NCBI GenBank assembly: GCA_038057845.1
Contig: JBBUCK010000031.1
Span: 12,669 to 59,600 of the forward strand
Reading direction: 5' to 3'
Source: Patescibacteria group bacterium
GTDB taxonomy: Bacteria; Patescibacteriota; Minisyncoccia; Phycocordibacterales; JAGLPS01
Length of the DNA stretch: 46,932 nucleotides
Part shown: one piece after another, positions 1 through 30,790 of the stretch
Layout of the letters: every line of letters begins with the position of its first letter
Position numbering within the stretch: the first letter of the stretch is position 1
The notes under the pieces: generated by a model
Database searches by the model: none
Told to the model about the DNA's origin: nothing
The model's input: the letters and a program-made list of their open reading frames with translations, nothing else
Made by a program: the position numbers and the translations under genes

Positions 1-53
1 GCATGCGCCTGAAGAGCGCGGGGTCGCCGGTTCAAATCCGGCTCTCGGCACCA
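1..53 (+). tRNA. 3' part of a type-II (long variable arm) tRNA, probably tRNA-Leu; the 5' part lies outside the window
   Basis: T-arm GCCGG-TTCAAAT-CCGGC, acceptor 3' strand TCTCGGC, discriminator A and an encoded CCA ending at 53. The upstream GCGCC..GAGCGC helix looks like a long variable arm. Confidence 0.65.
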
Positions 54-8286: not shown

Positions 8287-11200
8287 ATGAAAAATATATA
8301 TTCAGAACTAAGAATATGGGCAACGCGAATCGGAATTTTTGTTGCTTTATTTTCATTTTCAGCAATTCCTGCTTTTGCGGGAAATAATCAAAACAATGAA
8401 GGTTCAATCACTGTTTGTAAGATGATTGTGGATAACAATGGAGCAATTGCGACAACATCAGCAAATCTTCCGGGAGGGGCGTTTTCGATTGTTATATCCG
8501 AAGGTGAAGGTATCATGGCAACGTCTTCGACTCCTATCCAAACTATAACCTTTAACGCATCTACTTTTTCTCCAAACAAAAAAATTATTCTCAATCAGAA
8601 AGATGCGGAGTGTGTGACAATAAACAATCTTTCTTCCACAGGTTCTTACTTCTACAGCGAAGAAGTTGCTACCGGAAGCAATTGGGCATCAAAAAAATAC
8701 AATGACCAAGTAAGTATTACCGTTGATTCCCTCGACGACTTTTTCGTGTACAGCCCCGAATTGTGGAATGCAAATCCAGCCGATGATCTTGCGCGAAATA
8801 TAAATGCAGACGGACACATTGTTCTTACTAACTCAAGGCACCATCGAACGGTTATTATTTTAAACACATACGAAGTTCCACAAACACAGCCACAAACAGT
8901 AAAAATTATGGCTTCAAAGGTTGTCTGTAACGCAGAAACCGATTTGCCAAACTGGAGTGGCGCGCAACTTGCCATCTCACTTTCTACCGCTTCTGATTTT
9001 GTCGCTTCCCATCCAAACTGTCATTTAGAATCAGGATGGAAATTCCAATGGGGTTTTGGAGATAAATCAGGACAAGACGGCGTGGACGGTCTCTCGGGTG
9101 CATTTAGAGGCGAAGCCGACGGAAGCGAAACAGGAAATACCGATACGGGAAGTGCGTTTGACGAATGGAAAACTTTTGGCGTTACAAACACTCTCGGTGT
9201 TGCATCAACTACAATTTCTGACTTAGAAGGTTCAACTCGTATTTGGGTTCGTGAAGTCTTAAAATCAGATTATATTCCTTTTACATACAGTTACGGCAAC
9301 GACGCTCCCGGAAGCAATGTAAGCGCGGAGATGTGGTGCCATAGTGATGTTCTCAATTATGATAACTTTGATTTTATTGATAATCCTGTCTTGGGAAATA
9401 CATACAATTGCGTGGCATTTAATGTCGCCAGTTCAACGCCGACGGTGCCTGCATGTTCCGACACTATCGACAATGATCATGACAGTAAAATTGATGCCCA
9501 AGACCCTGGTTGTCATACTGATGGTAATCCTAATAATCCGAACTCATACAATTCAAACGATAATGACGAAGAAAATTCCGTAAATGCCTGTTTCTCGAAT
9601 ATTCTTCCTCATGGTTCCGATGTCTCGGTAACGCTTGGGAACAGTTTCGGTAATGACGAACATGCAATTGACATCATCTTGCATGATGCTGGCTACTCAG
9701 TGAGTACAACAACTGACCAAGACCCTTACTCTACATGGGAACTAACAGGGGATAGAACATATAATCTTAACATCACTCTTCTCGCCAGTTACGCAAACTA
9801 TAAAAGTGTTTTTGGCTATTACGAAAAAGGTAATCCGGCCTCTTTCACGCCCTTGTTTCGTACCGGTAATTTTTCGGGAATGAGTGCAACGAATACCCCA
9901 ATTCTTGCTCCGGGCGCGACTACCACTGTTACCGTCACCTCCCCCGTTGAAATCGGATTTGCTATTGTGCCTTTTGGTGAAGGAGCACATGCCACTCTTC
10001 TCACTACGGAAAAATCACTCAATACCCTCGATGGTAATGCTGACCACGCTGTTGTCTTTGATCTCTCGGATGCTTATGCCATTGGCTTTGAGGATCTTCT
10101 TGCAACTGGAACCACAGACCAAGATTTTAACGACGTTGTTGTATTGGTAAAAGTTACTTCATGTGAAGAAAACACAGAACCTCAAAATACAAGACCTGTT
10201 ATCAGCCTTCTTGGTGGTAACCCCATTAACTTGACTCTTGGAGACAACTTCACTGATCCGGGTGCAACAGCTCAAGACGATGAAGACGGAAATATAACCG
10301 CCAACATTGTTGATGGAGGAGTAGTCAATACATCTATTGTAGGTGCATACACAGTTACTTATGATGTTACTGATTCAGGAGGCCTTTCTGCTCTACAGGT
10401 AACGCGTATTGTTAATGTAAATCTCCCTGCAAACCCTGGGACGCTCAATGTGTGTAAGGTGATTGTTGACCAGAACAACACTGTGGCAACGAGTTCAGCA
10501 AACCTTCTTTCGGGAACATTCAGTATTAAAATTGCGTCAACAACGAACTTCGCATCCTCAACAATACAAACTGTTTCTTGGGGTTCAACTACGTTCACCC
10601 CAAATAGAAATATTATTCTCAACAATGATGATGCAGAGTGTATAACAATCAGCAACCTTCCACTCCAAAGTTACTATTACAGCGAGGAAAATATTCTCGG
10701 GTCAAATGCGTGGGCGACAACTACGAAATACAACGACCAAAATTCCCTTTCGGTCAACAACGTCTTTGATTTCTTTGTGTATGACAATGCCCTCTTTACT
10801 GCGACAACAACTGACGATGCAGGACGCAATGTAAATGCGGACGGACAAGTTACTCTAGTTCTCGGCAATATGGAACGTACGCTCGTTGTGCTTAACAAAT
10901 ACGATACAACTATGCTTCCACAGTGTTCCGACAATATGGACAACGATGGCGACAATAAAATCGACACCCTTGACCCTGCATGTCATACAGACGGAAATGC
11001 TACAAGTACTCCTTCATACGACCCAAACTTAAATAATGAAAATAGCAAACCGGTTATTACTTTGATTGGTAGCAGCTCAATTACGATTAATGTCGGTACA
11101 ACATATACAGATGAAGGCGCGAATGCATTGGATGAAGAAGACGGTGACATCACAAGTAATATTGTGAAAACAGGAAGTGTTGATACAACAACTCCAAGTA

Positions 11201-12474
11201 CAAATACCATTGCGTATAATGTCACTGACTCAAATGGTCTCGCGGCTGTGGAAGTAACGAGAACCGTGATTGTCGTTAATCCTGGAGGACAGGGCGGTGG
11301 CGGAGGTGGTGGCGGAGGTGGTGGAGGTGGTGGCGGAGGTGGTGGAGGGGGAGGTGGAGGTGGCCCAACCACTCCTTTTATTCCTGTAATAGCCGCTTCA
11401 ACTAATGGGGAAACAACAGTTACAACAACAGGTGGAGGAAGTTGTTACTACCTCTTTGACTTCTTAAAACAAGGCGAAAATAATAATCCTGTTGAAGTGC
11501 GGAAACTTCAAGTATTTCTCAAGGAATTAGAAGGATTTAGCGCACTCCAAATTACAGGCATCTTCGATGATGCAACATTTGCTGCAGTCTCCGTTTTTCA
11601 AGAAAAATACAAAGATGAGATTTTGACTCCATGGGGCCACACGGCTTCAACTGGATATGTATATATCTTGACCAAAAAGAAAGTTAATGAAATCTACTGT
11701 AAGACTGCTTTTCCAGTAAATACTCTTGAGCAGGCTGAAATTGATGCATTCAGAGCATTTCTTACATCACTAAGGGAGGCTGGCGTCATTACAGGCAATG
11801 AAAACGGAACTCCTCCTTTTGGAAATATAATTCCAAGTGGGGTTGAGGGTGGTGTGATTGTTCCGGGTGAAGTTGGTGTAATTCCAAGCGATGTTAGTGG
11901 CACTCTTGAAAATAAAAATGGGGTATCTCCTGTAGGAAATGGATTCTTCGGACTTCGAAATCCCGGCTTTCTTTCAAACCTACTTGCCGCGGCATTCACT
12001 CTTCCTACAAATATTCCTAACGCTCTTATTTCTCTCTTCACATTTCTTCTTGCACTTGTCGTGATTTACATCGCAGGTACGCTCATCGCGAACAGCCAAA
12101 GCTCTCTCGGGAAAACACTTAATCAATTGAAAGCTCGCAAGGCAATGTACTTTGCAGTCGGTGTTCTCGCCGCGCTTTCCGGAGCTTACTTCCTTCGCGT
12201 GTATTCTATTATCCTTCCACTTTTTATCGCCTTCGTGACTTTAGTTATTTTGTGGTTTTGGTATAGAAGCAAAAAAATTACTTCTATAATGGCGATGGAG
12301 ACAATTGAAAAAATGAAGAAAGAAACAGCAGCCAAGATGACCGTTACTCCTTTGAACGAAGAAAGTAAAAGTACTCCAATCATTCTTCCAGGAAAAACAG
12401 AAAAGCCTACTCCTACCCAAGATAAAGGGTTCTCTTCTGTTTTTAAGTCGGACCAAGATAAGGACAAAAAATAG
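8287..12474 (+). CDS. giant (1395 aa) secreted, membrane-anchored mosaic surface protein
   Basis: Signal peptide ...AIPAFA/GN. Duplicated prealbumin/SpaA-like domain (GSITVCKMIVDNNG.. and GTLNVCKVIVDQNN..). Two Cys-bracketed acidic 20-mers. DUF4114-like segment (FGYYEKGNP...YAIGFEDL...TDQDFNDVVVLVKV). Two DUF5011/Ig-like segments (PVISLLGGNP.., PVITLIGSSS..). 24-Gly tract. PG_binding_1-like segment (VRKLQVFLKELEG...GIFDDATFAAVSVFQ). C-terminal TM helices and a K/E-rich tail. Confidence 0.9.
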   Translation: MKNIYSELRIWATRIGIFVALFSFSAIPAFAGNNQNNEGSITVCKMIVDNNGAIATTSANLPGGAFSIVISEGEGIMATSSTPIQTITFNASTFSPNKKIILNQKDAECVTINNLSSTGSYFYSEEVATGSNWASKKYNDQVSITVDSLDDFFVYSPELWNANPADDLARNINADGHIVLTNSRHHRTVIILNTYEVPQTQPQTVKIMASKVVCNAETDLPNWSGAQLAISLSTASDFVASHPNCHLESGWKFQWGFGDKSGQDGVDGLSGAFRGEADGSETGNTDTGSAFDEWKTFGVTNTLGVASTTISDLEGSTRIWVREVLKSDYIPFTYSYGNDAPGSNVSAEMWCHSDVLNYDNFDFIDNPVLGNTYNCVAFNVASSTPTVPACSDTIDNDHDSKIDAQDPGCHTDGNPNNPNSYNSNDNDEENSVNACFSNILPHGSDVSVTLGNSFGNDEHAIDIILHDAGYSVSTTTDQDPYSTWELTGDRTYNLNITLLASYANYKSVFGYYEKGNPASFTPLFRTGNFSGMSATNTPILAPGATTTVTVTSPVEIGFAIVPFGEGAHATLLTTEKSLNTLDGNADHAVVFDLSDAYAIGFEDLLATGTTDQDFNDVVVLVKVTSCEENTEPQNTRPVISLLGGNPINLTLGDNFTDPGATAQDDEDGNITANIVDGGVVNTSIVGAYTVTYDVTDSGGLSALQVTRIVNVNLPANPGTLNVCKVIVDQNNTVATSSANLLSGTFSIKIASTTNFASSTIQTVSWGSTTFTPNRNIILNNDDAECITISNLPLQSYYYSEENILGSNAWATTTKYNDQNSLSVNNVFDFFVYDNALFTATTTDDAGRNVNADGQVTLVLGNMERTLVVLNKYDTTMLPQCSDNMDNDGDNKIDTLDPACHTDGNATSTPSYDPNLNNENSKPVITLIGSSSITINVGTTYTDEGANALDEEDGDITSNIVKTGSVDTTTPSTNTIAYNVTDSNGLAAVEVTRTVIVVNPGGQGGGGGGGGGGGGGGGGGGGGGGGGPTTPFIPVIAASTNGETTVTTTGGGSCYYLFDFLKQGENNNPVEVRKLQVFLKELEGFSALQITGIFDDATFAAVSVFQEKYKDEILTPWGHTASTGYVYILTKKKVNEIYCKTAFPVNTLEQAEIDAFRAFLTSLREAGVITGNENGTPPFGNIIPSGVEGGVIVPGEVGVIPSDVSGTLENKNGVSPVGNGFFGLRNPGFLSNLLAAAFTLPTNIPNALISLFTFLLALVVIYIAGTLIANSQSSLGKTLNQLKARKAMYFAVGVLAALSGAYFLRVYSIILPLFIAFVTLVILWFWYRSKKITSIMAMETIEKMKKETAAKMTVTPLNEESKSTPIILPGKTEKPTPTQDKGFSSVFKSDQDKDKK
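11293..11364 (+). repeat. imperfect GGN microsatellite encoding 24 consecutive glycines
   Basis: 24 codons counted in frame: ggc ggt ggc gga ggt ggt ggc gga ggt ggt gga ggt ggt ggc gga ggt ggt gga ggg gga ggt gga ggt ggc. Confidence 0.95.
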
Positions 12475-13372: not shown

Positions 13373-14587
13373 TTATGAGAGTCTCAACTTCCCTTCCGCT
13401 TTAATAGAAATTTTCTTTTTAAGAATGTTAGGTTTGTTCTTTATTTTCATAAATCCCGCCATAGCAATCATCAAGGCATTGTCTGTCGTTACATGAGCTT
13501 GTGGAATGTGAAGTGAAATTTCCATTTCCTCCGCGAGGTGCGTGAACGCGCGGCGTAAAGCAGTGTTTGCAATAACGCCGCCGCCGACAATTAAACTTTT
13601 TGCCTTGTATGTTTCAATCGCTTTTCTTGTTTTTGAAACGAGAACCTCAATTATCGCTTCTTCAAATTCACGGGCAATGGTTTGTTTTGCTTCCGCGTTA
13701 ACCACCTTCATTTTTTTTAGGGTATAGAGAACTGCTGTTTTAAGTCCTGCAAAAGAAAAATCCAAGTTGCCAGAATGAATCATAGGGCGGGGAAGTTTGT
13801 ATACATTTGAAACCTCTATTGCGTTGCGATGGGCTTCCGAAAGTCCTGAAATGTGCGGCCCTCCGGGATAGGGAAGTTCAAGCATCCGCGCCACTTTATC
13901 AAACGCTTCGCCAACAGCGTCATCGCGAGTTTCTCCGACGATTTTGTATGAACCCCACTTTTTTACCAGCGCCAGTTCCGTATGTCCTCCCGAAACAAGA
14001 AGGGCTAAGGCAGGGAATTTAGGATAAACGCCCGCCTCGACTCGCTTCACTTGTTGATGCGAGGTCGGGACTTCCCCACCGTTTTTTTGGGAAAGAAGAA
14101 CGGAAACAATATGTCCTTCCATGTGGTTGATAGGAATGACAGGAATCCCCCACATTTCACCTAATGCTTTCGCGAAATTAATTCCAACCCAAAGCGCCGG
14201 CTCAAGTCCCGGACCGCTTGTGACCGCGATAGCATCAATTTTAGGTCGCGCGATAGTTGGTACGTATTTTAGAAAATGGAGAAGGAGTTCTGGTTCACGT
14301 TCAAGAATTTTCATAATCTTTGTTGCGACATTGGTTTTGAAATGTTTTTTTGCCGCCTTTTCTTCCCCTGCCTCTTTGAGAGTTTTTTTAAGGATTGGTA
14401 TGAGATTTTTTTGATGCTCACGTTTGGCGAGTTGTGGAAAGACCCCGCCGTATTGTTTGTGGATTTTTATCTGTGACAAAACAGAGTAGGATAGCACGTC
14501 AAAACGGGGCATATCTCCCGTCCCTGTGGCGTTTATGATGCTCAATGCCGTTTCATCGCAACTTGTTTCAATACCGAGTATTTTCAT
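13373..14587 (-). CDS. tsaD: tRNA N6-adenosine threonylcarbamoyltransferase TsaD (Kae1/Gcp family), with an internal insertion
   Basis: ILGIETSCDETA, GGVFPQLAKREH, VSGGHTEL, DDAVGEAFDKVARML and GGGVIANTALR. At 404 aa it is longer than usual. Confidence 0.92.
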   Translation of the reverse strand: MKILGIETSCDETALSIINATGTGDMPRFDVLSYSVLSQIKIHKQYGGVFPQLAKREHQKNLIPILKKTLKEAGEEKAAKKHFKTNVATKIMKILEREPELLLHFLKYVPTIARPKIDAIAVTSGPGLEPALWVGINFAKALGEMWGIPVIPINHMEGHIVSVLLSQKNGGEVPTSHQQVKRVEAGVYPKFPALALLVSGGHTELALVKKWGSYKIVGETRDDAVGEAFDKVARMLELPYPGGPHISGLSEAHRNAIEVSNVYKLPRPMIHSGNLDFSFAGLKTAVLYTLKKMKVVNAEAKQTIAREFEEAIIEVLVSKTRKAIETYKAKSLIVGGGVIANTALRRAFTHLAEEMEISLHIPQAHVTTDNALMIAMAGFMKIKNKPNILKKKISIKAEGKLRLS

Positions 14588-14752: not shown

Positions 14753-15325
14753 CTACAGACCAAAATCTTTTCTTAGCCAACCATCGTTTTCCAGACGTTC
14801 TGCAACAACATACAGTATATCCTTCCCAATTTTAAAATCTGCTTTAAGAAGTACCACGATATCTTCACAATCATAAGGATAAATCCACACACTATGCTGA
14901 AGATGTTTAAACCCGAAATCGATCAAAGATCTTCTTAATTTATCTCTTGTTCCTCTTCTGTGTTCTTTAATGTCAAAAATAAGCATTCTCCATTTTCCAT
15001 CCCAATACTGCGGTTTCTTCTGTTTTAAGATATTCGTTTCTAAATATATTTTTCCCTTATCAGTAAGTCGAACAAAAGTCCCTTTTTCTGTTTTTTCAAA
15101 ATAGACCATTTCTTGCCGTAACAGGCGATTGAGTGCTGTATTGACTGCGATATGTGTATTTCGGGATCTTTTTTTGAGAAAAGGCTTGAGAAGTTGGATG
15201 GCATTAGGTGCAACGAGCGCGATACTCAATACCCCGACCAATCCAATTGTCGACAGCACAGCATTTTTAATAAATGCTTTTTGTTCGTTTGTTTTTGTTT
15301 TTAATGGGTTTTGTAAGGAAGTCAC
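14753..15325 (-). CDS. membrane-anchored PaaX-like (winged-helix plus Cas2-like ferredoxin-fold) regulator
   Basis: N-terminal TM helix. wHTH-like NTALNRLLRQEMVYFEKTEKGTFVRLTDKG. WDGKWRMLIFDIKEHRRGTRDKLRRSLIDFGFKHLQHSVWIYP matches the PaaX central-domain pattern W.G.W.l..f.ipe..r..R..lr..L...GF..l...vW..P. Confidence 0.6.
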   Translation of the reverse strand: MTSLQNPLKTKTNEQKAFIKNAVLSTIGLVGVLSIALVAPNAIQLLKPFLKKRSRNTHIAVNTALNRLLRQEMVYFEKTEKGTFVRLTDKGKIYLETNILKQKKPQYWDGKWRMLIFDIKEHRRGTRDKLRRSLIDFGFKHLQHSVWIYPYDCEDIVVLLKADFKIGKDILYVVAERLENDGWLRKDFGL

Positions 15326-15898: not shown

Positions 15899-15910
15899 GG
15901 AGTTTTCATA

Positions 15911-15944
15911 AAGGCGATGATATTAAATATCATCGCCTTTTTTG
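15911..15944 (+). terminator. rho-independent terminator
   Basis: AAGGCGATGATATT-AA-ATATCATCGCCTT followed by TTTTT. Confidence 0.8.
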
Positions 15945-16025: not shown

Positions 16026-16073
16026 AAATTACAAGGTCGAACCTTAAATTACAAGGTCGAACCTTGTAATTTT
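16026..16073. repeat. tandem copies of the ACAAGGTCGAACCTTGT hairpin repeat
   Basis: AAATTACAAGGTCGAACCTT occurs twice in tandem (16026-16045 and 16046-16065). The second copy completes a hairpin with GTAATTT. The same element occurs three times at 33437-33540. Confidence 0.8.
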
Positions 16074-16302
16074 TCTACTTATTTTTAAAATATTTTACCA
16101 AAAAATCACTGGGGCACGGGAAATGTGTTTGTAAAGTAAACGACATTTTTGAAATTCAAGGAAAGTCCGAGAGGGAAACCTTATTTTTTCTCTATTTTCT
16201 CTCGGACAAAAAGACATTTTTGACATGAAAAGACAAACACTCTCAAATGATGACTTTAGTGTATTACCTAAACATATATTCTCTTGACAAACGATATTAT
16301 GG

Positions 16303-16475
16303 AGTACGTACGAGTCCGCAACCTGCCTGCTTCGAATTGCGAAGCAAGTCGGGCAGGTCTGCCGCCGCTTCTTCTTTCTCCGGTCGTTAAAGGAAGAGCA
16401 GGGGCGGGCTTAGGGCCGCACTTGATGGTAAAGAGGAAATATTCATCAAGCACCGTTCGGTGTTTCTTTTGTTTA
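16303..16475 (+). promoter_or_regulatory. GC-rich structured element (candidate leader or ncRNA) upstream of the fibre operon
   Basis: Sharp GC-rich island in an AT-rich spacer. Nested hairpin CCTGCC-TGCTTCG-AATTG-CGAAGCA-..-GGCAGG (16322-16357). CTTGATGG..ATCAAG hairpin (16421-16450). CACC-GTTC-GGTG plus TTTCTTTTGTTT (16451-16474), about 50 nt before the 16526 start. Confidence 0.3.
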
Positions 16476-16525: not shown

Positions 16526-17461
16526 ATGAGTAAATTTAGAAAAATTCTCGCAGGCTTTTCGGCAGTTGCCATTTCCGTGGCATTGATGCCGATGTTCGCC
16601 GCTTTTGAAGCCCACGTGATTAACGTTACAGCGAAAATTGAGAATGCTTTGTCGGTTCCAACAGAAGCCCTCAATTTCGGTACAGTGTTTCCACAGGAGC
16701 AACTTGCGAAGTTTCTCAATATCAGCCTCTCGCAATCTTTTAAAGATGAACCACAGGCTGACGATGTTAACTATATTATTCGCCAGAAACCGAAATGTGG
16801 CGTGACATCAGAAAATGGGACAATCTTGGTTGGTTCAACATGGACTGGCCATATAGTAGTTAATACTGACGGTTCAACTACGATTGATTGTAATAAGGAC
16901 AAACCAGCGGGTGTAGGAGATGGACAATACCTCTTGCCATCTCTTTGTGAATATGTTTCAAAACACCCAGATGGTAAAGACGATGATACTGATTCAAGCA
17001 CTGTAATTGGACAAACAAATGATGGGTCATTAAATTCATTTCACAAACCATTTGAGGTTCTTCCGGGGACAGGCACAACAACTCCGCCCGCAGCAAATTA
17101 TTACATTGATTGGAACGACACACCCGGTCGTCTTGCAAAATCAGAAAATGACACAACGGACAACTGGACAATTGACCTGAAAGTTCCATGTTTTGGCAAT
17201 TACTGCGCTCAAGACTGGGCAAGTTTTGTAACGGGCATCAATCCAAATGCAATTCCTGCTGATTACACTCAGGATATAACAAACGAGCACAAAATCTTTG
17301 GTTGCAACCTTTGGGTAGAAGTAACTGGTGTATCTCGTATACCAACTCAGTGTAATGACAATCAAGACAATGATAGAGATGGACTTGCTGATGAGTTAGA
17401 TCCAGGTTGTATGTTGAACAACGTCTACAATCCTCTAGATAATGATGAGAGTGATCTCTAA
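16526..17461 (+). CDS. secreted fibre-subunit candidate, paralogue A (311 aa), with a C-terminal Cys-bracketed acidic motif
   Basis: Signal peptide ending ..MFAAFEAHVINVTAKIENAL. Shares LNFGTVFPQE, IRQKPKC, GRLAKS, IDLKVPCFGNYCAQDW and FGCNLWVEV blocks with the next gene. C-terminus is CNDNQDNDRDGLADELDPGC. Confidence 0.85.
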   Translation: MSKFRKILAGFSAVAISVALMPMFAAFEAHVINVTAKIENALSVPTEALNFGTVFPQEQLAKFLNISLSQSFKDEPQADDVNYIIRQKPKCGVTSENGTILVGSTWTGHIVVNTDGSTTIDCNKDKPAGVGDGQYLLPSLCEYVSKHPDGKDDDTDSSTVIGQTNDGSLNSFHKPFEVLPGTGTTTPPAANYYIDWNDTPGRLAKSENDTTDNWTIDLKVPCFGNYCAQDWASFVTGINPNAIPADYTQDITNEHKIFGCNLWVEVTGVSRIPTQCNDNQDNDRDGLADELDPGCMLNNVYNPLDNDESDL

Positions 17462-17517
17462 CTAAATAGCGCTTAATAACTAGACGGGGAAACTGTTAGA
17501 AAGCGCTTACTACTGAA

Positions 17518-18873
17518 ATGAAAAAATTATTAACAGGAATAACAGCTTTGGGATTAGCTATTGCGTTGATTCCTATGGTTTCCGCGTATGAGGCCCACGT
17601 CATCAATGTTACGGCGACGATTGATAACGCTTTGACGGCAAATGTCTATTCTCTTGACTTCGGAACCGTCTTCCCGCAGGAAAAATTCGACAAACAATTC
17701 ACTATTGGTATGTCAAATTCTTTCCAGGCGGACCAGACTTACGATGACATTGAGTATGTGCTACGTCAGAAGCCTAAATGTCAACTCAATGAAATAGGAA
17801 GCCAAGTCATTCCAGCACTTCCACAATTCGGGCAAGTTACAGAGGAAGAAAATATCTTCGTCTGTAAAGACGAAGTGAATTACGACTTGATGGCGTTTCT
17901 TTGCCCGTATCTTTCCAAAGCCGAAGTCACCACAGACGGCACAGCACCAAATGGAGAGAATGACATGAATGTTCCAGAGTCAGAGAGCGGACACCTTGGT
18001 CCGGTCTACTCATTCCACGGCCCCATTCTGGTGGCTTCTTCCGATGGCGAGCCCACTTGGGATCTTCAAGATACTCTCACTTGGCAACAATGGGGACGTC
18101 TTGCGAAATCTGACCAAGATACTTCAGACCAGTGGAACATTGATTTAAAAGTTCCCTGCTTTGGAAATCATTGCGCGCAGGATTGGGCGGACTTCTTTCT
18201 CGCAAATGGAGGAAGTCAGAACGGCCATACTGGGGATGATGCCGCAGATTACATCCAACCAATCGGAAATGAGCACCTACTCTTTGGATGTGACTTATGG
18301 GTTGAAGTCAAAGATTTGAGTTTTACTCCGGAGACGGCGACACTTACAGTTAATAAGATTCTTATTACCGATAATGGAGGAAATGAAACCGCAACAAATT
18401 TTCAATTGTTTGTTGACGCGACCGCTGTAAGTAATGGAGTAGCAAATGTGCTTGCTCCCGGAAGCTATGTAGTAACTGAAATCGGAGTATCCGGTTATCA
18501 GGCGACATTTAGTGGTGATTGTAATGCTGGCGGTCAAATCACACTCGTCGCTGGACAGAATAAGCAGTGTACCATCACAAACGACGATATCGCGCCTAAC
18601 GTTACTCTCATTAAGAGTGTAACTAACAATGGCACTCCCCCAGGGACGGCACCGCCTTTTCAGTTCACTCTTCGTGTAGATGGCAATGTTGTACCGCAAA
18701 ACACATCTGTCGCGGTGACCGCGAACTCTTCTCATTCCATCACGGAGGATCCTAAGGCGGGATATAGTTTTACCTCGATTACGGGGGCAAATTGCCCGAC
18801 AAACCTTGGCGATTTGTTTTCTCTCAATGAAGGTCAAGCTATCACGTGTACTATCACAAACGACGATAATTAA
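17518..18873 (+). CDS. secreted fibre-subunit candidate, paralogue B (451 aa), with two C-terminal prealbumin/Cna-B-like domains
   Basis: Signal peptide ..MVSAYEAHVINVTATIDNAL. Same conserved blocks as paralogue A. C-terminal repeats end in CTITNDD twice (..GYQATFSGDC..CTITNDD and ..GYSFTSITGANC..CTITNDDN). Confidence 0.85.
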   Translation: MKKLLTGITALGLAIALIPMVSAYEAHVINVTATIDNALTANVYSLDFGTVFPQEKFDKQFTIGMSNSFQADQTYDDIEYVLRQKPKCQLNEIGSQVIPALPQFGQVTEEENIFVCKDEVNYDLMAFLCPYLSKAEVTTDGTAPNGENDMNVPESESGHLGPVYSFHGPILVASSDGEPTWDLQDTLTWQQWGRLAKSDQDTSDQWNIDLKVPCFGNHCAQDWADFFLANGGSQNGHTGDDAADYIQPIGNEHLLFGCDLWVEVKDLSFTPETATLTVNKILITDNGGNETATNFQLFVDATAVSNGVANVLAPGSYVVTEIGVSGYQATFSGDCNAGGQITLVAGQNKQCTITNDDIAPNVTLIKSVTNNGTPPGTAPPFQFTLRVDGNVVPQNTSVAVTANSSHSITEDPKAGYSFTSITGANCPTNLGDLFSLNEGQAITCTITNDDN

Positions 18874-18963
18874 ACTCCTAGCTTAGATATTCATTGTTCA
18901 ATCTCTAGCTCAACTACTTGTGATAGATGGGCTAGGGTCTTGAGCAATTAATGAATTAAAAAT

Positions 18964-19422
18964 ATGAATGGAGAAATAAAAAATGTAATGCCGGAAGAGG
19001 CAAAAAGAGAAAAACTTTCTTTACGGCAAAAAATAATTCTTGCGATAGTGGCGTTTCCTCTTCTCTTTGTCTTCTACGTTTCGCTTGACGCGAATAAATA
19101 CAAAGCATACGTGCGGGTAGTTCCCGGCGAGGGAATTGTCGGTGTGAATCCAACGGATAAAGCGCTTGATTTCGGAGACCTTTCTCGCGGCGGGCGGGCG
19201 GTACGAAAGGTAGCTATTCAAAACGGCACATTTATACCCGTGCAGATTGTAGTTCTCAAATGGGGAAGTATTGCCGATTTAATGGATGTGAATAAGGATA
19301 ATTTTAAACTGAGCGCGGGGGAAAATGCCGAGATTGAGTTTACGACGTATGTTCCCGCGTCAGCGGAAATAGACAAGATTTATAACGGAAGAGTATATCT
19401 ATTCAAAATTCCACGTTTCTAA
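18964..19422 (+). CDS. membrane-anchored single Ig-like (PapD/ASH-like) domain protein
   Basis: TM helix IILAIVAFPLLFVFYV followed by ..KAYVRVVPGEG, which resembles the EAHVINV junction. ALDFGDLSRGG..VAIQN..FKLSAGENAEIEF is typical of beta-sandwich ASH/PapD-like domains. Confidence 0.7.
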   Translation: MNGEIKNVMPEEAKREKLSLRQKIILAIVAFPLLFVFYVSLDANKYKAYVRVVPGEGIVGVNPTDKALDFGDLSRGGRAVRKVAIQNGTFIPVQIVVLKWGSIADLMDVNKDNFKLSAGENAEIEFTTYVPASAEIDKIYNGRVYLFKIPRF

Positions 19423-19456
19423 AAGAGTCGAAAGTCAAAAGTAAAACCAAAGAAAA

Positions 19457-19906
19457 ATGAGAATGATAATCAAAACCGTTCTAAACATCGTAATCTACTT
19501 CGCGATTGTCGCAGGGCTTGTGTTTGGTCTGCCGCATCTTCTCACGAAGTGGCTTGGTACGGAATATCCGATGGCGGCGATTACTTCAGGCTCAATGTGG
19601 CCCGCGCTTCACACAGGGGACCTTGTTTTCGTGCAAGGCGTTGCCAAAGAAGATTTGAAGGTAGGGGATGTTATTGTTTTCAAAAACTCCGAGACGGGAG
19701 TGTTTACCATTCACCGAATTTTTTCAATGGGTGAAAAAACTCTGACGACCAAAGGAGACGCGAACTTTGACCCCGACAAACCGACACCGTATGAAAATGT
19801 TGTCGGGAGACAATTGATTCTTTGGGGAAAAAAGGTTCACATTCCAATGCTCGGAAGAATAACGATGTTTGCGCAAAATATCAGAATCAATGCGGGCCGT
19901 CCTTGA
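19457..19906 (+). CDS. ER/archaeal-type (S26B, SipW/Sec11-like) signal peptidase I
   Basis: N-terminal TM helix. Catalytic-Ser box ITSGSMWPALHTGD. GDVIVF. His box FTIHRI in place of the Lys box of P-type enzymes. TKGDANFDPD (GDxN box). Confidence 0.8.
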   Translation: MRMIIKTVLNIVIYFAIVAGLVFGLPHLLTKWLGTEYPMAAITSGSMWPALHTGDLVFVQGVAKEDLKVGDVIVFKNSETGVFTIHRIFSMGEKTLTTKGDANFDPDKPTPYENVVGRQLILWGKKVHIPMLGRITMFAQNIRINAGRP

Positions 19907-19934
19907 CGAGCCTGGCACAGTTTGACCAATTTTC

Positions 19935-21740
19935 ATGCGGGGAACTAATTACAAAAAAAGAATAGAAAAATGGAACAAGAACACTGAAGTGCGCAAATAT
20001 TCTTTCGCGAATGTTGATGGAATTTTCGATAAACTCCTGATTTCAAATTATGTCGTGGTGCGGGGAACGATATCAATTCCCTCTTCTGAATTTCCCAAAA
20101 AAGAAGAAAAGAAAAATGGAAAAAAGTTTTCTTTCACTTCCCTATTTCTTAAACGTAATTTTTATTTCGGCGCTCTCTCTTCACTGCTTATTCTTTTGAA
20201 TGTTATTGTTCCGCTTAGCGCTTTTGAAGCTCATATTTTGAATGTAACAGCCAGCATTAAACAGAGAACATGCACTGTGGCGACATTTGAAAATGACGCT
20301 TCCGGTCTTGCGATTTTGGCAGGGCAAATTCTTGATAACGAGTACAGCGATTGGGGATTGACGATTTCCGCGGATAATAACCACGCAGGCGTTCCAGACT
20401 TGGCAGTTGCTTTCAATAGCGACGCGCCAAGCGGCGGAGATACCGATTTAGGAACTCCCAACAGTGATTTTGGCGGCCCTGGGGTTGGAGCGGGCGGAGC
20501 GAATGGGGAACCGGGGGAAAATAACCGCCTTGAACATAACCTTCTTGTGATTGCGCAGGATAATGTGGACGGCAATGGCGACCTGCGCGTTGACGACCCT
20601 TCCGATGAGCCTGACGGCGGATGGGTTTGGTTTACTTTTGACGCGCCAACGCGGGTTGAAAGTTTGCGTTTGATTGATATTGAAACCTTGGGAGTAAAAA
20701 TTGATGTATATAACGCGGCGGATATTTTGGAGGAAACAATTAACGTTCCTTCCCTCGGAAATAATTCATCTCAATACATGGCGATTAACAAAGAAGGGGT
20801 GAAGAAAATCGGAGTGTGGCTAACGGGGGAAGGCGCGTTGGACAGCCTTTGTTTTGACCCGATTGAAAAGCCGCAGATATGCGATGCGCGGTCAAAAGGA
20901 TATTGGGCAAATCATGAAGGATGCTCAAACGGAAGCGGGGAAAGTCTCTGGATGAGTGAGGTCAATGTTTTGAGTGACAGTTTCTTCGATATTTTTGCCA
21001 CGTCAACGGGAGCGCAGATATGTAGCGCTTTGTGGACGCCGAATTGTCCATCGGGGAACACAATTCCCTCGCGACTGTGCAAAGCGAAAGGCCATCTGTT
21101 GGCTGATGAGTTGAATGTCGTTTCCGGCCGCCTTGTTCTCACTGCGCTTATCGCCGGAGCCTATGACGGCGATGAAGCTTTCAGCAATCTTTCACTCACG
21201 CCGTTTTCGACAGTGGGACAAGCACTCGGAATGATTGAAGCGATTTTGGCTGATTCCAATTCCACTAAAAAAATGATTAACGATGCCGGATATGTCGCGC
21301 AACGTATTTATGAATTTTATGAAAATGAAAATCCGTTCAGGCCGCAGTGCGTTTTTGATCCTGAAGACGTGCCGCAATGTCTCGCGCCGTTAAACGTCAA
21401 CATTGAAATTAACAATAACGAAGAAATTGTGAATATTGTGGAAACTTCCTCAAACACGGGCGGGAACAGCGCGGGCGGGGGAGAAATTGAGACGGGAAAT
21501 GCAAGTTCAACCTCGGAAGTGACTAATATCGTCAACGAAACAATAATTGATATTCCGGATAATGGCATTGGAACGACGACTCAAAATATTGTTACAGAAT
21601 CTTCGATAGTGTCGCTCCAAAATGAAGCCGGTGGAAACGCGCAGGAAGATATTGTTGCCGAAGAAGTTATTATTCCAGAAGAAGTTGTGGAAGAATCTCC
21701 GCAAGAAAACTCACAGGAAGTTTCGACGATTTCTGAATAG
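19935..21740 (+). CDS. secreted fibre-operon protein C (601 aa), Cys-rich, with a C-terminal N/G/T repeat and an acidic tail
   Basis: Hydrophobic segment ..LLNVIVPLSAFEAHILNVTASIKQ has the same junction as A and B. The C-terminus NIVETSSNTGGNSAGGGEIETGNASSTSEVTNIVNETI matches the repeat of the 29.6-33.4 kb genes. The start is uncertain because 75 aa precede the hydrophobic core; GTG codons at 20053-20058 are alternatives. Confidence 0.8.
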   Translation: MRGTNYKKRIEKWNKNTEVRKYSFANVDGIFDKLLISNYVVVRGTISIPSSEFPKKEEKKNGKKFSFTSLFLKRNFYFGALSSLLILLNVIVPLSAFEAHILNVTASIKQRTCTVATFENDASGLAILAGQILDNEYSDWGLTISADNNHAGVPDLAVAFNSDAPSGGDTDLGTPNSDFGGPGVGAGGANGEPGENNRLEHNLLVIAQDNVDGNGDLRVDDPSDEPDGGWVWFTFDAPTRVESLRLIDIETLGVKIDVYNAADILEETINVPSLGNNSSQYMAINKEGVKKIGVWLTGEGALDSLCFDPIEKPQICDARSKGYWANHEGCSNGSGESLWMSEVNVLSDSFFDIFATSTGAQICSALWTPNCPSGNTIPSRLCKAKGHLLADELNVVSGRLVLTALIAGAYDGDEAFSNLSLTPFSTVGQALGMIEAILADSNSTKKMINDAGYVAQRIYEFYENENPFRPQCVFDPEDVPQCLAPLNVNIEINNNEEIVNIVETSSNTGGNSAGGGEIETGNASSTSEVTNIVNETIIDIPDNGIGTTTQNIVTESSIVSLQNEAGGNAQEDIVAEEVIIPEEVVEESPQENSQEVSTISE

Positions 21741-21756
21741 AAAAAATAAAGAAAAA

Positions 21757-21789
21757 CCCCTCGTTTTGCTCATTGAGCAAAACGAGGGG
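21757..21789. terminator. bidirectional rho-independent terminator
   Basis: CCCCTCGTTTTGCTC-ATT-GAGCAAAACGAGGGG flanked by A-run and T-run. It lies between convergent genes. Confidence 0.85.
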
Positions 21790-21791
21790 TT

Positions 21792-22349
21792 TTATGTATC
21801 AAACAATTCTTTAACGGAACTTTTGCGTCTATCACCATTCACGAAGTTCTCAATTTGAAAGGCGATGTCTATGGCGCGTGGAGTTGTGGTGTCAATAACG
21901 AGGTCATAATTTTTGGGATAATCAAACTTAAGTATCCCGTACAGATTTTTGTATCGTTCTCTGATTGCCCGTTCTCTTTGCAGAGTAACTTTCTCTGCTT
22001 CTTTAAGCAAGAGTTTATCACGAAAAGCGATTCTCCTAAATCGCTCATAGTTATCACATACGAGTAGGATTTTTTTGGAATCGGGTATGTAATGATAAGC
22101 GATTCTGCCGTCGAAAATGAAATTATCATTTTTTATCCCGAATTCTTCGGTTTGGGCGTCAACCCTCCTGTCGTAAACTGGTGTATCTATTGCCAGTTGT
22201 TCAAGCTTTGATGAAGAGATTTCAAGCCCAATGGCAATATTACGGAAAAATTCTCCCGCTGACATAAATTTATACCCCAACTTTTCGGCAAGGATTTTTC
22301 CGACAGTTCCTTTACCTGTTCCCGCTAAACCTCCGATGGTTATTTTCAA
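21792..22349 (-). CDS. P-loop nucleoside-monophosphate kinase, cytidylate-kinase-like (archaeal-type)
   Basis: MKITIGGLAGTGKGTVGKILAEKLGY P-loop in a 185-aa NMP-kinase-sized protein. Substrate specificity cannot be determined by eye. Confidence 0.65.
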   Translation of the reverse strand: MKITIGGLAGTGKGTVGKILAEKLGYKFMSAGEFFRNIAIGLEISSSKLEQLAIDTPVYDRRVDAQTEEFGIKNDNFIFDGRIAYHYIPDSKKILLVCDNYERFRRIAFRDKLLLKEAEKVTLQRERAIRERYKNLYGILKFDYPKNYDLVIDTTTPRAIDIAFQIENFVNGDRRKSSVKELFDT

Positions 22350-22663: not shown

Positions 22664-23362
22664 ATGGAAAATGATGACCTTGAAAATTTGGCCAAAGAGT
22701 TTGTAAAGAAGAACGAAGATTTTATAATAGCAAAATTTGCTGGAGAAAGTTCTTATATACCAGATTCAACGCCAATTTCTCTTTTTATGGCAGGTTCTCC
22801 TGGGGCAGGAAAGACGGAGGTCTCAAGAAGTCTCGTGAAGAAGTTCAACAGTATGCCCATATTAATTGATGCTGATGAATTAAGAAAGATATGCCCTGGC
22901 TATATTGGTACTAATGCTCATATTTTTCAAAAGGCGGCCGTAAAAGGTATAAATATACTTTTAGACCATGCTTTGGATAACAAACTTAATTTTATTCTTG
23001 ATGGGACATTTGCATATGCTGATCCTATAGCCAATATACAAAGGTCAATTGACCGTTCACGAGTCGTGGAGGTTTGGTTCATATATCAAAAACCAGAACT
23101 TGCTTGGAAATTCACACAAATAAGAGAAGCTGTGGAATCAAGAAGGGTTGTTAAGGAAAAATTCATTGAAGCTACGATAAAATCAAGAGATAATGCTATT
23201 TCAGCGAAAAAGCATTTTGGAAAAGCCATAGAATTAAATTTACTTACAAAAAACCTGGACAACACCGACGGTGATATTAGATTGAACATTTCCACAAAAG
23301 AACTTGACCGCTATTTGGGTACTGGCTATACTAAGGATGAGTTGAACAACTTATTGGAATGA
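22664..23362 (+). CDS. zeta-toxin-family P-loop kinase-like protein
   Basis: Walker A MAGSPGAGKTEVS, then ILIDADELRK and NFILDGTFAY, as in zeta-toxin (PF06414-type) proteins. Confidence 0.7.
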   Translation: MENDDLENLAKEFVKKNEDFIIAKFAGESSYIPDSTPISLFMAGSPGAGKTEVSRSLVKKFNSMPILIDADELRKICPGYIGTNAHIFQKAAVKGINILLDHALDNKLNFILDGTFAYADPIANIQRSIDRSRVVEVWFIYQKPELAWKFTQIREAVESRRVVKEKFIEATIKSRDNAISAKKHFGKAIELNLLTKNLDNTDGDIRLNISTKELDRYLGTGYTKDELNNLLE

Positions 23363-23547
23363 TGAATATCTTAAAAAGTTTATTTATAAAGAAAAGTCCA
23401 AAAAAAGCAGAAAAGAACGACTTTTCTGAGTTTTTTGTTAATGCAAAATCTAAAGATAAGACCAAAATTATGAGGCATGTTCTTAGGGAAGCTACTGAAC
23501 AGCAAAGAGCGGTAATAAAGAAATATGAGGAGATGAAAACCGCTTAA
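23359..23547 (+). CDS. small basic protein translationally coupled to the zeta-like gene
   Basis: ATGA start/stop overlap with the upstream gene. Ends inside a terminator hairpin. 62 aa, no family recognised. Confidence 0.5.
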   Translation: MMNILKSLFIKKSPKKAEKNDFSEFFVNAKSKDKTKIMRHVLREATEQQRAVIKKYEEMKTA

Positions 23548-30343: not shown

Positions 30344-30790
30344 ATGAAACGTGTATCAATCATCTTTCTTACTCTTTTTTCTCTCGCTTTGCCCGTGACG
30401 GCATACGTTGAGGTTGAAAACAATGTTAGGGCGACTGTTAATACGGGAGGCAATTCGGCAAGCGCGGGAAATCAAAGTTCAGGCGGAACAGTCGTTACTT
30501 CTGAAGCGACAGCAACAGTCAAAGTAAAAACCACTGTCGGAGGCGTTGTTGTCGAAGATATTAATGAAACGTATAAAAGTAGCGCGCCGCTTGAGGTTAA
30601 AAAAACGAGTTTGTATGCGACAACAAGCGCGGAAGTTAAAACTCGCGTTTCCGTAAAAGCGCAAGCCACAAGTTCAAACGCGACATCTTCTCAAGAACAA
30701 GTGAAAAAAGCAGTTCAGGAAAGGAAATACCACTTTCTTTCACGAATCAAACAATTATTTAAAAATGTTTTTTCCCGATTTACATTTTAA
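30344..30790 (+). CDS. small secreted protein with one N/G/T repeat unit
   Basis: The ATG at 30344 gives MKRVSIIFLTLFSLALPVTAYVEVENNVRATVNTGGNSASAGNQSSGGTVVTSEATATVKV. The track start at 30308 is TTG. Confidence 0.7.
   Translation: MKRVSIIFLTLFSLALPVTAYVEVENNVRATVNTGGNSASAGNQSSGGTVVTSEATATVKVKTTVGGVVVEDINETYKSSAPLEVKKTSLYATTSAEVKTRVSVKAQATSSNATSSQEQVKKAVQERKYHFLSRIKQLFKNVFSRFTF

Follow-up and report, generated by a model that had tools for sequence, protein, structure and literature searches.

The stretch of DNA examined here (46,932 nucleotides of the Patescibacteria contig JBBUCK010000031.1, referred to below as the window) raises the question of what is built by a cluster of five genes, named p1 to p5 in their order of reading, in which a signal peptidase of the endoplasmic reticulum (ER)/archaeal type is encoded among its likely substrates. 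Bacteria of the candidate phyla radiation (CPR) are thought to live attached to other cells. To our knowledge, almost nothing has been reported on their surface organelles besides type IV pili. On first inspection of the DNA, the original prediction saw in this cluster a candidate fibre system comparable to TasA or to the archaeal bundling pili (ABP). The analysis described below retains the logic of that proposal and finds no support for the kinship. The cluster belongs to a widespread cassette, whose core family comprises 602 clusters at 50% identity and 1,112 at 90%, and which appears to assemble or anchor surface fibres and adhesins in a manner that has not been described, on the pattern of TasA but with no detectable relation to it.

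A shared N-terminal module and the peptidase predicted to expose it

Three of the five products, p1, p2 and p5, carry the sequence A↓FEAH[VI][IL]NVTAxI directly after their sole hydrophobic segment (the arrow marks the predicted point of cleavage). This near-invariant junction, common to the three large proteins, had been pointed out from the start, and its three versions, AAFEAHVINVTA, SAYEAHVINVTA and SAFEAHILNVTA, are all present. It is not due to chance, since a relaxed junction pattern finds no other match in the six-frame translation of the 46.9-kb window. Every protein of the cluster has exactly one hydrophobic segment, located at the N-terminus; in the substrates this segment is long (about 19 to 22 residues), and in p1 and p2 it is preceded by a short basic n-region. 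The conserved stretch, called the module hereafter, lies beyond the hydrophobic segment and is not buried inside the signal peptide. As had been proposed, it sits where a SipW substrate has its donor strand, namely in the first 11 or so residues after the cleavage site; in TasA, this strand consists of residues 28-38, the first 11 following SipW cleavage (PMC9674648).

The conservation of the module was evaluated by scanning metagenomes for DNA encoding FEAHVINVTA, which returned 120 loci, and the motif statistics were drawn from the N-termini of 122 distinct core proteins (the family of p1 and p2) and 48 distinct non-core proteins. The consensus consists of the hydrophobic segment followed by A↓[FY]EAH[VI][IVL]NVTAx[IL]. 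Position -1 is Ala in 121 of the 122 core and 45 of the 48 non-core N-termini, Gly taking its place in the remainder; in both groups, position -3 is hydrophobic and Pro or Gly is found at positions -5 to -7, with mostly Pro at -5. The conservation runs on into the fold in the core proteins (ENALxV...FGTVFP) and ends after 12 residues in the non-core proteins. No segment of the core family is more conserved than the module, whose hydrophobic residues alternate (I, V, A, I). The variants FESHVINV(A/I)A and FEAYV(V/I)NVTA (L004 1812-4403, L017 7256-9007, L027 877-1644 and L066 768-1448) show that some drift of the sequence is possible, from A to S at position 3 and from H to Y at position 4. A cleavage at A↓FEAH fits these data, given the invariant small residue at -1, and a cut one residue earlier appears unlikely, since Q, D, W, F and L occupy that position in non-core proteins. 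The N-V-T triplet within the module of p1, p2 and p5 forms an invariant N-glycosylation sequon; in the archaeal AbpA, it is the donor strand that carries N-glycans (PMC9245690). A metal site might be formed by the invariant E and H of the module together with the invariant H173, E254 and H255 of the core.

The candidate processing enzyme is the product of p4. It reaches 94.2 bits with TIGR02228, the model of the archaeal/ER-type signal peptidase I (cut-off 51.85), and remains below the cut-off of the bacterial P-type model TIGR02227 (38.5 for 47); a better alignment to a P-type LepB is therefore not observed. The enzyme is of the Ser/His type (SGSMxP ... HR ... GDxN), with no Ser/Lys dyad, and its boxes SGSMWP (Ser46), TIHR (His86) and KGDAN, on which its first assignment to the ER/archaeal type had been based, are conserved to at least 95% among 48 homologues. 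With the SipW equivalog NF046067 it scores 48.8 bits for a cut-off of 190, and its 149 residues, tethered by a single N-terminal hydrophobic segment acting as a transmembrane (TM) anchor, are devoid of the SipW-type C-terminal extension. On these scores, p4 is classified in the Sec11/SipW class (MEROPS S26B) without being a SipW orthologue. A genome-contig scan with the single p4 sequence returned two close relatives only, both embedded in the same synteny; outside Patescibacteria, the nearest matches of one genome scan are distant peptidases from archaea and Bacillota, with 33-41% identity.

The cassette and its protein families

The arrangement of these genes is a recurrent one. The same order, in which one to five core paralogues are followed by p3, p4 and, often, a large non-core protein bearing the module, is repeated in Sungbacteria, Uhrbacteria and other genome bins. 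The co-occurrence of the peptidase with EAH[VI]xNVTA proteins, for which a survey had been recommended, was examined in the metagenomic loci that continue for 1.5 kb or more past the final core gene, and both p3 and p4 are present in 26 of these 27 loci. In each of the 34 p3-p4 pairs, the two genes are neighbours and are read in the direction of the core genes, and a non-core module protein directly follows p4 in 16 of the 23 loci with room for it. The p3 gene is as universal in the cassette as p4, and the recurring order therefore defines four types of components, more than a peptidase and its substrates. In Sungbacteria (L001/L002, 9227-10814), genes for a GIY-YIG nuclease and a 23S-rRNA-intervening-sequence protein interrupt the cassette around p3, between the core genes and the peptidase. 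No description of this cassette was found in the literature searched. That an ER-type signal peptidase can be dedicated to an N-terminal strand is already known from TasA; the subunit family, the sorting signal, the obligatory PapD/MSP-fold partner described below and the restriction to Parcubacteria, as judged from the named matches, are new.

The core subunits p1 and p2 are paralogues, as first noticed, with 41% identity over 284 residues by BLASTP (E 2e-61) and 45% by MAFFT. In p1, the signal peptide (residues 1-26) and the module precede a beta-rich core of about 235 aa with six invariant Cys and a C-terminal acidic double-disulfide repeat; the protein matches NF033662 at 3.6e-7, below the cut-off. 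In p2, two SpaA-type prealbumin-fold domains are found at the C-terminus (residues 272-353 and 380-449), with matches to PF19403 (4e-11) and PF24514 (6.7e-4, below the cut-off). The 1,112 clusters retrieved with p1 at 90% identity are without exception unnamed or annotated as 'hypothetical protein', and the named organisms among these matches all belong to Parcubacteria/Patescibacteria, for example Sungbacteria. A profile search of 1.84 billion representatives ended in a closed family, the 602 clusters mentioned above, and no bridge to known families was found among the best 150 of the 602, all of them at E<1e-52.

The core domain, of about 260 aa across the family, is matched by no Pfam or NCBIfam model. 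Its six Cys and many polar residues are invariant, and 55-65% identity is maintained across candidate phyla. Frequently, vWA or SpaA-type domains come after it or a DUF642-like insert splits it; the proteins that seemed to contain tandem cores, with two or three matched stretches, are actually single cores split in this way. A whole domain is inserted after a conserved LSxSF strand in P0165, P0175, P0196, P0207, P0214, P0229 and P0235; the inserts have DUF642-like lectin or carbohydrate-binding module (CBM) folds, or consist of another beta domain, which suggests that the insertion site is a surface-exposed display loop. Several core proteins are devoid of the module and begin at the next strand after an ordinary AxA site, VSA↓TDVTIDSNLSVSP (L028 913-2181, L037 7729-9663, L078 687-1583, L099 3004-4242, L076 3525-5312 and L003 14765-16717). 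They are candidates for cap subunits that would accept a strand and donate none.

The structure of p1 was modelled with AlphaFold2 (AF2) from 60 homologues, giving a beta-rich protein (pLDDT 83.5, pTM 0.75). In this monomer, no secondary structure is assigned to the module (residues 27-38), whose pLDDT is about 65; from residue 41 on the chain folds with confidence, and residues 41-50 reach 94. Foldseek detected no match to the model in the PDB at E<=0.001 and nothing meaningful among viral structures. The entries above this threshold comprise the TasA fibre 8aur_A at rank 5 (E 0.12, prob 0.20, TMq 0.23, TMt 0.28), FimA (9fxa_K; E 0.17, prob 0.16, TMq 0.16), CanA (E 0.22, prob 0.47, TMq 0.23), the PapD-like domain of CEP192 (E 0.26, prob 0.75, TMq 0.22) and AggA (4ph8_A; E 0.45, prob 0.28, TMq 0.19). 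When the family profile was run against the sequences of the PDB, the sole outcome was a chance match between the signal peptide and a cytochrome b reductase (E 0.77).

In the product of p3, the n-region is cytoplasmic and residues 20-41 form a TM helix; the protein also contains an invariant LDANKY and one beta-sandwich, in agreement with its initial description as a TM-anchored protein with a single Ig-like domain. Its AF2 model, built with database homologues (pLDDT 86), displays a long first strand (residues 44-56) and a complete sandwich in which this strand of its own is docked. Foldseek relates it to the MSP/VAP/ASH/PapD-like superfamily (prob 0.99-1.00, E 2e-3 to 2e-2), the targets being MSP/VAP domains, the OCRL ASH domain, CEP192 and the chaperone-usher chaperones Caf1M, FimC and CupB2, with a TMt of 0.42-0.47 for single-domain targets. 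Pfam matches lie below the gathering score only: ASH in 10 of 28 homologues (best 0.0019), Cep192_D2 in 9 and PapD-like in 3. As judged from its model, p3 has the PapD/MSP/ASH fold, which had been overlooked by the original prediction. Folds of the PapD/MSP type characteristically bind extended peptides or strands in trans. The weak copy of the motif formerly assigned to p3 (KAYVRVV) lacks statistical support: the hhalign probability of 82% obtained over residues 1-54 falls to 0.7% once the hydrophobic segments are trimmed. The same result disposes of p3 as a 'mini-core' carrying this motif.

Apart from its N-terminal junction (about 30 residues, E ~1e-4), p5 shares nothing with p1 and p2. Its hydrophobic segment lies at about residues 75-96; beyond the module, the chain is first beta-rich, then passes through a helical 'GYW(K/A)NH' domain containing Cys and ends in a low-complexity acidic tail, with neither a core domain nor a C-terminal anchor. 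The protein had been described as Cys-rich; it contains just 9 Cys in 601 residues. Its true start is uncertain because some 85 residues precede the hydrophobic segment; alternative GTG start codons are present at 20055 and 20058, and long n-regions also occur in the p5-type proteins of other loci. The other non-core carriers of the module are large multi-domain proteins, with LTD, SdrD_B, VWA, DUF4215, DUF642 and Fn3-associated domains, or else with the Cys-containing 'GYWKNH' helical domain found in p5.

What the exposed module may do

The explanation closest to the initial proposal would be a true, divergent member of the TasA/camelysin/AbpA family, with p1 and p2 as TasA, p3 as TapA or AbpB and p4 as SipW. 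The operon logic is indeed the same, p3 being directly upstream of the peptidase as in tapA-sipW (PMC10151520). The TasA fibre is among the Foldseek matches, hhalign pairs the ...AAF of both signal-peptide ends, the homology between AbpA and TasA itself required the most sensitive methods, and proteins matching PF12389 occur in Patescibacteria (PMC9245690). The direct comparisons are nevertheless negative. PF12389 (Peptidase_M73) has no match in p1, p2 or p5 at E<=1, whereas the TasA control is matched, and the NCBIfam models of TasA (NF046066) and exp_by_SipW are likewise without a match in the cassette proteins at this threshold. The hidden Markov model of the SipW-cognate signal, TIGR04088, had been recommended as a check; it is silent on the N-terminal 60-66 residues of p1, p2 and p5 at E<=10, the TasA control reaching 38 bits for a cut-off of 19, and TIGR04089 and TIGR04090 give no match either. 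In hhalign, a 60-sequence p1 family and a 40-sequence TasA family are aligned through their signal peptides only (52.7%), and trimming these leaves 0.2%. A TasA-like fold, although anticipated, is not found by Foldseek with the p1 model, the values for 8aur_A given above not being significant. Together with the closed family obtained from 1.84 billion representatives and the distance of p4 from the SipW cut-off, these results make such a divergent membership very improbable, and direct homology to TasA is rejected on the strength of the Pfam/NCBIfam scans, hhalign and Foldseek. Of the TasA or bundling-pilus-like system first envisaged, the operon logic stands, with its dedicated peptidase, shared post-cleavage segment and co-inheritance; homology to TasA, camelysin and AbpA could not be demonstrated. 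The likeness to TasA holds as an analogy only.

The preferred reading is that the peptidase exposes a strand which, by beta-strand complementation, would polymerise the core subunits, bring in adhesins or dock on p3, even if this fibre model is held tentatively, at somewhat less than an even chance. Substrates exported by Sec would be cut by p4 after the invariant Ala, leaving the module as the new N-terminus. The module would then form a beta-strand of 10-12 residues inserted into another protein by beta-strand complementation, and the core subunits would polymerise head-to-tail in this manner, with their C-terminal or inserted domains (SpaA-like, vWA, DUF642-like) projecting from the fibre. 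The module-only p5 could only donate and would be placed at one end as nucleator, tip or adhesin, comparable to TapA, which shares such a strand and donates it to start the TasA fibre (PMC9674648, PMC10151520). Core proteins without the module could only accept and would cap the other end. At the membrane, beside the peptidase, p3 may hold or anchor the newly unmasked strand in the manner of PapD; should p3 undergo cleavage at its own LDA↓NKY, it may instead be a TapA-like initiator.

Several observations argue in favor of this scheme. A role in trans is suggested for the module because its conservation is the highest in the family although it lies outside the fold of the monomer model, and because it is portable onto unrelated proteins. 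A head-to-tail polymer is suggested by the donate-only and accept-only members, which correspond to the end pieces that it requires, and a role of p3 in strand binding by the known members of its fold, which bind strands or peptides in trans. Since the substrates have no other anchor, their retention must use something else. In a more ambitious form, the fibre model would become an usher-less donor-strand pilus pathway of Parcubacteria, in which the unmasked FEAHVINVTAxI, a tethered PapD/MSP-fold chaperone or anchor and a new subunit of about 260 aa displaying vWA, SpaA, LTD or lectin domains would constitute a third independently evolved solution beside the chaperone-usher and TasA/ABP systems, likely as a host-attachment organelle. 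Taken as a whole, this larger proposal is doubtful, with the chances clearly against it.

The same components can be combined differently. Each substrate could be tethered by its module in the domain of p3, with no polymerisation, and the cell would be covered by a lawn of adhesins. In favour of this docking, p3 is universal, single-copy, TM-anchored and of a strand- or peptide-binding type of fold, the same module is present on all substrates whatever their mature domain, and no other anchor is available to them. It implies, however, an awkward stoichiometry of one p3 per two to six substrate genes; it leaves without explanation the strong conservation of the core, its one to five paralogues per locus and the module-less core proteins, and the sandwich of the p3 model is already completed by its own first strand. 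A lawn of docked adhesins is therefore considered unlikely. Signal peptidases normally read positions -3 and -1 and a few primed positions. The 10-12 primed residues conserved here are too many for A↓FEAHVINVTA to be comfortably explained as a mere recognition determinant (P1-P10'), with mature proteins that would be released or bound to the envelope by other means and with p3 as an unrelated accessory, for instance a regulator of the peptidase. The conservation continues undiminished through V-I-N-V-T-A-x-I with the periodicity of a beta-strand, the module is undocked in the monomer model though invariant, and the fixed pairing of p3 and p4 would remain unaccounted for. Even if the invariant E, A and H beside the scissile bond suggest recognition by the enzyme, no polymerising fold was detected for the core and certain ER-type peptidases, SipW among them, serve just a few substrates (PMC9245690), processing as the sole function is quite improbable. 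The least probable possibility is that of an uncleaved signal anchor: the substrates would be type II membrane proteins, the module a juxtamembrane stalk contacting p3 or p4, and p4 would be inactive or act elsewhere. Long hydrophobic segments and the long cytoplasmic n-regions of p3 and the p5-type proteins are in line with it, and retention would be accounted for in proteins with no other anchor. However, p4 shows strict conservation of its catalytic Ser, His and Asp boxes, the c-region is canonical (Ala at -1, helix-breaking Pro/Gly at -5 to -7, hydrophobic -3), and short basic n-regions such as those of p1 and p2 are typical of cleaved signals.

A number of points weigh against polymerisation through the exposed strand. 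Positions 0-9 of the motif are biased, the loci having been retrieved by a pattern encoding FEAHVINVTA; the flanking positions and the additional genes of each locus are free of this bias. A large hydrophobic residue at -3, often Phe here, is atypical for type I signal peptidases, and cleavage after FEA is an alternative to A↓FEAH. The requirements of a plain beta-strand are exceeded by the invariant E, A and H, which could serve recognition by the peptidase only. Known pilins and fibre subunits (TasA, CanA, FimA, AggA) match the core weakly, with E 0.1-0.5 and TM 0.2-0.4, and, since no structural neighbour is significant, there is no firm basis for viewing the core as an incomplete Ig-like fold that offers an acceptor groove. 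Finally, the view is limited to the 47-kb window, and a separate housekeeping LepB elsewhere in the genome is possible.

If the fibre model is true, the few donor-strand fibre systems would gain another subunit fold and another sorting signal, both new, and the SipW/TasA logic would have arisen, or would have been kept, in a deeply divergent lineage. A↓FEAHVINVTA would also provide a simple sequence tag by which the adhesins on parcubacterial surfaces could be inventoried. Existing groundwater metaproteomes could reveal the cleavage site, through the semi-tryptic peptides FEAHVINVTAK/R, AFEAHVINVTAK and HVINVTAK; in synthetic form, the module peptide is FEAHVINVTAKIENAL.

Genomic setting and comparison with known systems

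The five open reading frames (ORFs) are co-directional and tightly spaced, as first described, with gaps of 56, 90, 34 and 28 nt from p1-p2 to p4-p5, and all of them are found at the expected place on the forward strand (Table 1). Bounded by the upstream hairpins and by the downstream bidirectional terminator, which also serves a convergent cytidylate-kinase-like gene beyond p5, they constitute one plausible transcription unit. A weak sigma-70-like site was seen by consensus scan only, in a region where the promoter count is not above that of shuffles. Upstream of p1, the 21-nt unit AAATTACAAGGTCGAACCTT is repeated in tandem; next comes a G+C-rich stretch, about 170 nt long, at whose end a terminator-like hairpin lies some 60 nt before the p1 start. 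This G+C-rich leader was considered as a riboswitch and rejected, with no Rfam match, a folding z-score of -1.7 and no conservation in 130 fetched loci.

Table 1. Coordinates of the p1-p5 cluster and of other features in the window
Feature	Position	Strand	Description
Partial tRNA	1-50		cut by window start; Rfam RF00005, 33.6 bits
Putative surface protein	8287-12474		1395 aa; 2x Bact_surface_Ig-like, DUF4114, PG_binding_1
TsaD-like ORF	13373-14587		404 aa; judged from translation alone
PaaX-like regulator	14753-15325	-	PaaX_M, 1.9e-20; divergent, ~1.2 kb upstream of operon
Upstream boundary	15910-15940, 16046-16072	+	two terminator-like hairpins closing the preceding unit
Tandem 21-nt repeats and G+C-rich stretch	16027-16470		upstream of p1
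Sigma-70-like site	16064-16091		weak; consensus scan
Terminator-like hairpin	16448-16465		~60 nt before p1 start
p1	16526-17461	+	311 aa; core subunit
p1 module, FEAHVINVTAKI	16604-16639	+	residues 27-38, after invariant Ala at -1
p2	17518-18873	+	451 aa; core subunit
p2 module, YEAHVINVTATI	17587-17622	+	residues 24-35
p3	18964-19422	+	152 aa; TM helix and predicted PapD/MSP/ASH-fold beta-sandwich
p4	19457-19906	+	149 aa; ER/archaeal-type signal peptidase I
p5	19935-21740	+	up to 601 aa, start uncertain; adhesin-like
p5 module, FEAHILNVTASI	20223-20258	+	residues 97-108
Downstream terminator	21753-21793	.	perfect 19-bp hairpin flanked by A and T runs, bidirectional; operon end
Zeta-toxin-like kinase	22664-23362		PF06414, 6e-32
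62-aa ORF	23359-23547		overlaps the end of the zeta-toxin-like gene by 4 nt
Putative surface protein	30765-33371		868 aa; DUF11

The neighbours in the window include genes for a class I aminoacyl-tRNA synthetase, FtsZ, FtsA, GyrA, S1, a HisRS-like protein and the TsaD-like protein of Table 1. On the evidence of the sequence, the setting is a chromosomal region of a CPR bacterium and no mobile element. The zeta-toxin-like gene and the 62-aa ORF that overlaps its end may be a toxin-antitoxin pair in toxin-first order. Two other putative surface proteins, of 1395 and 868 aa, are encoded in the window; the FEAHVINVTA module is absent from both, and the genome therefore has surface proteins outside the sorting route of the cassette.

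Compared with known systems, the cassette is closest in its logic to tapA-sipW-tasA and to the archaeal AbpA/AbpB, in which a dedicated ER/archaeal-type peptidase is likewise encoded among its substrates. The conserved segment right after the cleavage site occupies the donor-strand position, as in TasA; a non-homologous protein, here of the p5 type, carries the shared N-terminal segment, as TapA does; an Ig-like accessory gene lies directly upstream of the peptidase, as in tapA-sipW; and the host is monoderm with no usher, as Bacillus. The cassette subunit has, however, no detectable homology to TasA, camelysin or AbpA in sequence or fold. The signal class A↓FEAHVINVTA, unmatched by TIGR04088, differs from that of the SipW substrates, p4 is below the NCBIfam equivalog cut-off for SipW, and p3, with a predicted PapD/MSP fold and a TM helix, is unlike TapA and its V-set or macroglobulin-like fold. 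Each locus contains, in contrast to tapA-sipW-tasA, one to five core paralogues to which adhesin domains are fused or into which they are inserted, very large multi-domain proteins carry the module as well, and the cassette is confined, among the named matches, to Parcubacteria/Patescibacteria.

With the chaperone-usher pili (Fim, Pap, Caf1), the cassette has in common a short conserved N-terminal extension with alternating hydrophobic residues, an accessory protein of PapD fold (p3, with Caf1M, FimC and CupB2 among its Foldseek targets), adhesin domains fused to a pilin-like domain and, in its 'donate-only' and 'accept-only' members, a counterpart of the terminator and tip subunits. The differences are the lack of an outer membrane and of an usher, no usher-like gene being found in the operon, in the other window ORFs scanned with Pfam or in the related loci; a p3 that is single-domain and TM-tethered, unlike the two-domain boomerang chaperones; a core (about 235 aa, three putative disulfides) much larger than the pilin Ig domain and with no significant similarity to it; and the inclusion of a dedicated signal peptidase. 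Type IV pilins differ in that the motif of the cassette stands after the hydrophobic segment, behind an Ala at -1, and that the associated peptidase belongs to S26 and not to the A24 prepilin peptidases.

Like the sortase-assembled pili of the SpaA type, the cassette would yield surface fibres of a monoderm, with vWA and SpaA/CnaB-type domains in tip or ancillary adhesins (SpaA_2 in p2; vWA and SdrD_B in relatives). Unlike these pili, its substrates have no LPXTG or C-terminal hydrophobic anchor, the cassette contains no sortase gene, and the shared sorting element is N-terminal. Comparative genomics has also defined pairs of a sorting signal and its processing enzyme, such as PEP-CTERM/exosortase and the SipW-cognate TIGR04088. 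In contrast to these, the motif and carrier families of the cassette have no Pfam or NCBIfam model, and the motif is located on the mature side of an N-terminal signal peptide. The principle is nevertheless the same as in these pairs: a short invariant motif is carried by paralogous and non-homologous proteins alike, and it is tightly linked to one dedicated processing enzyme.

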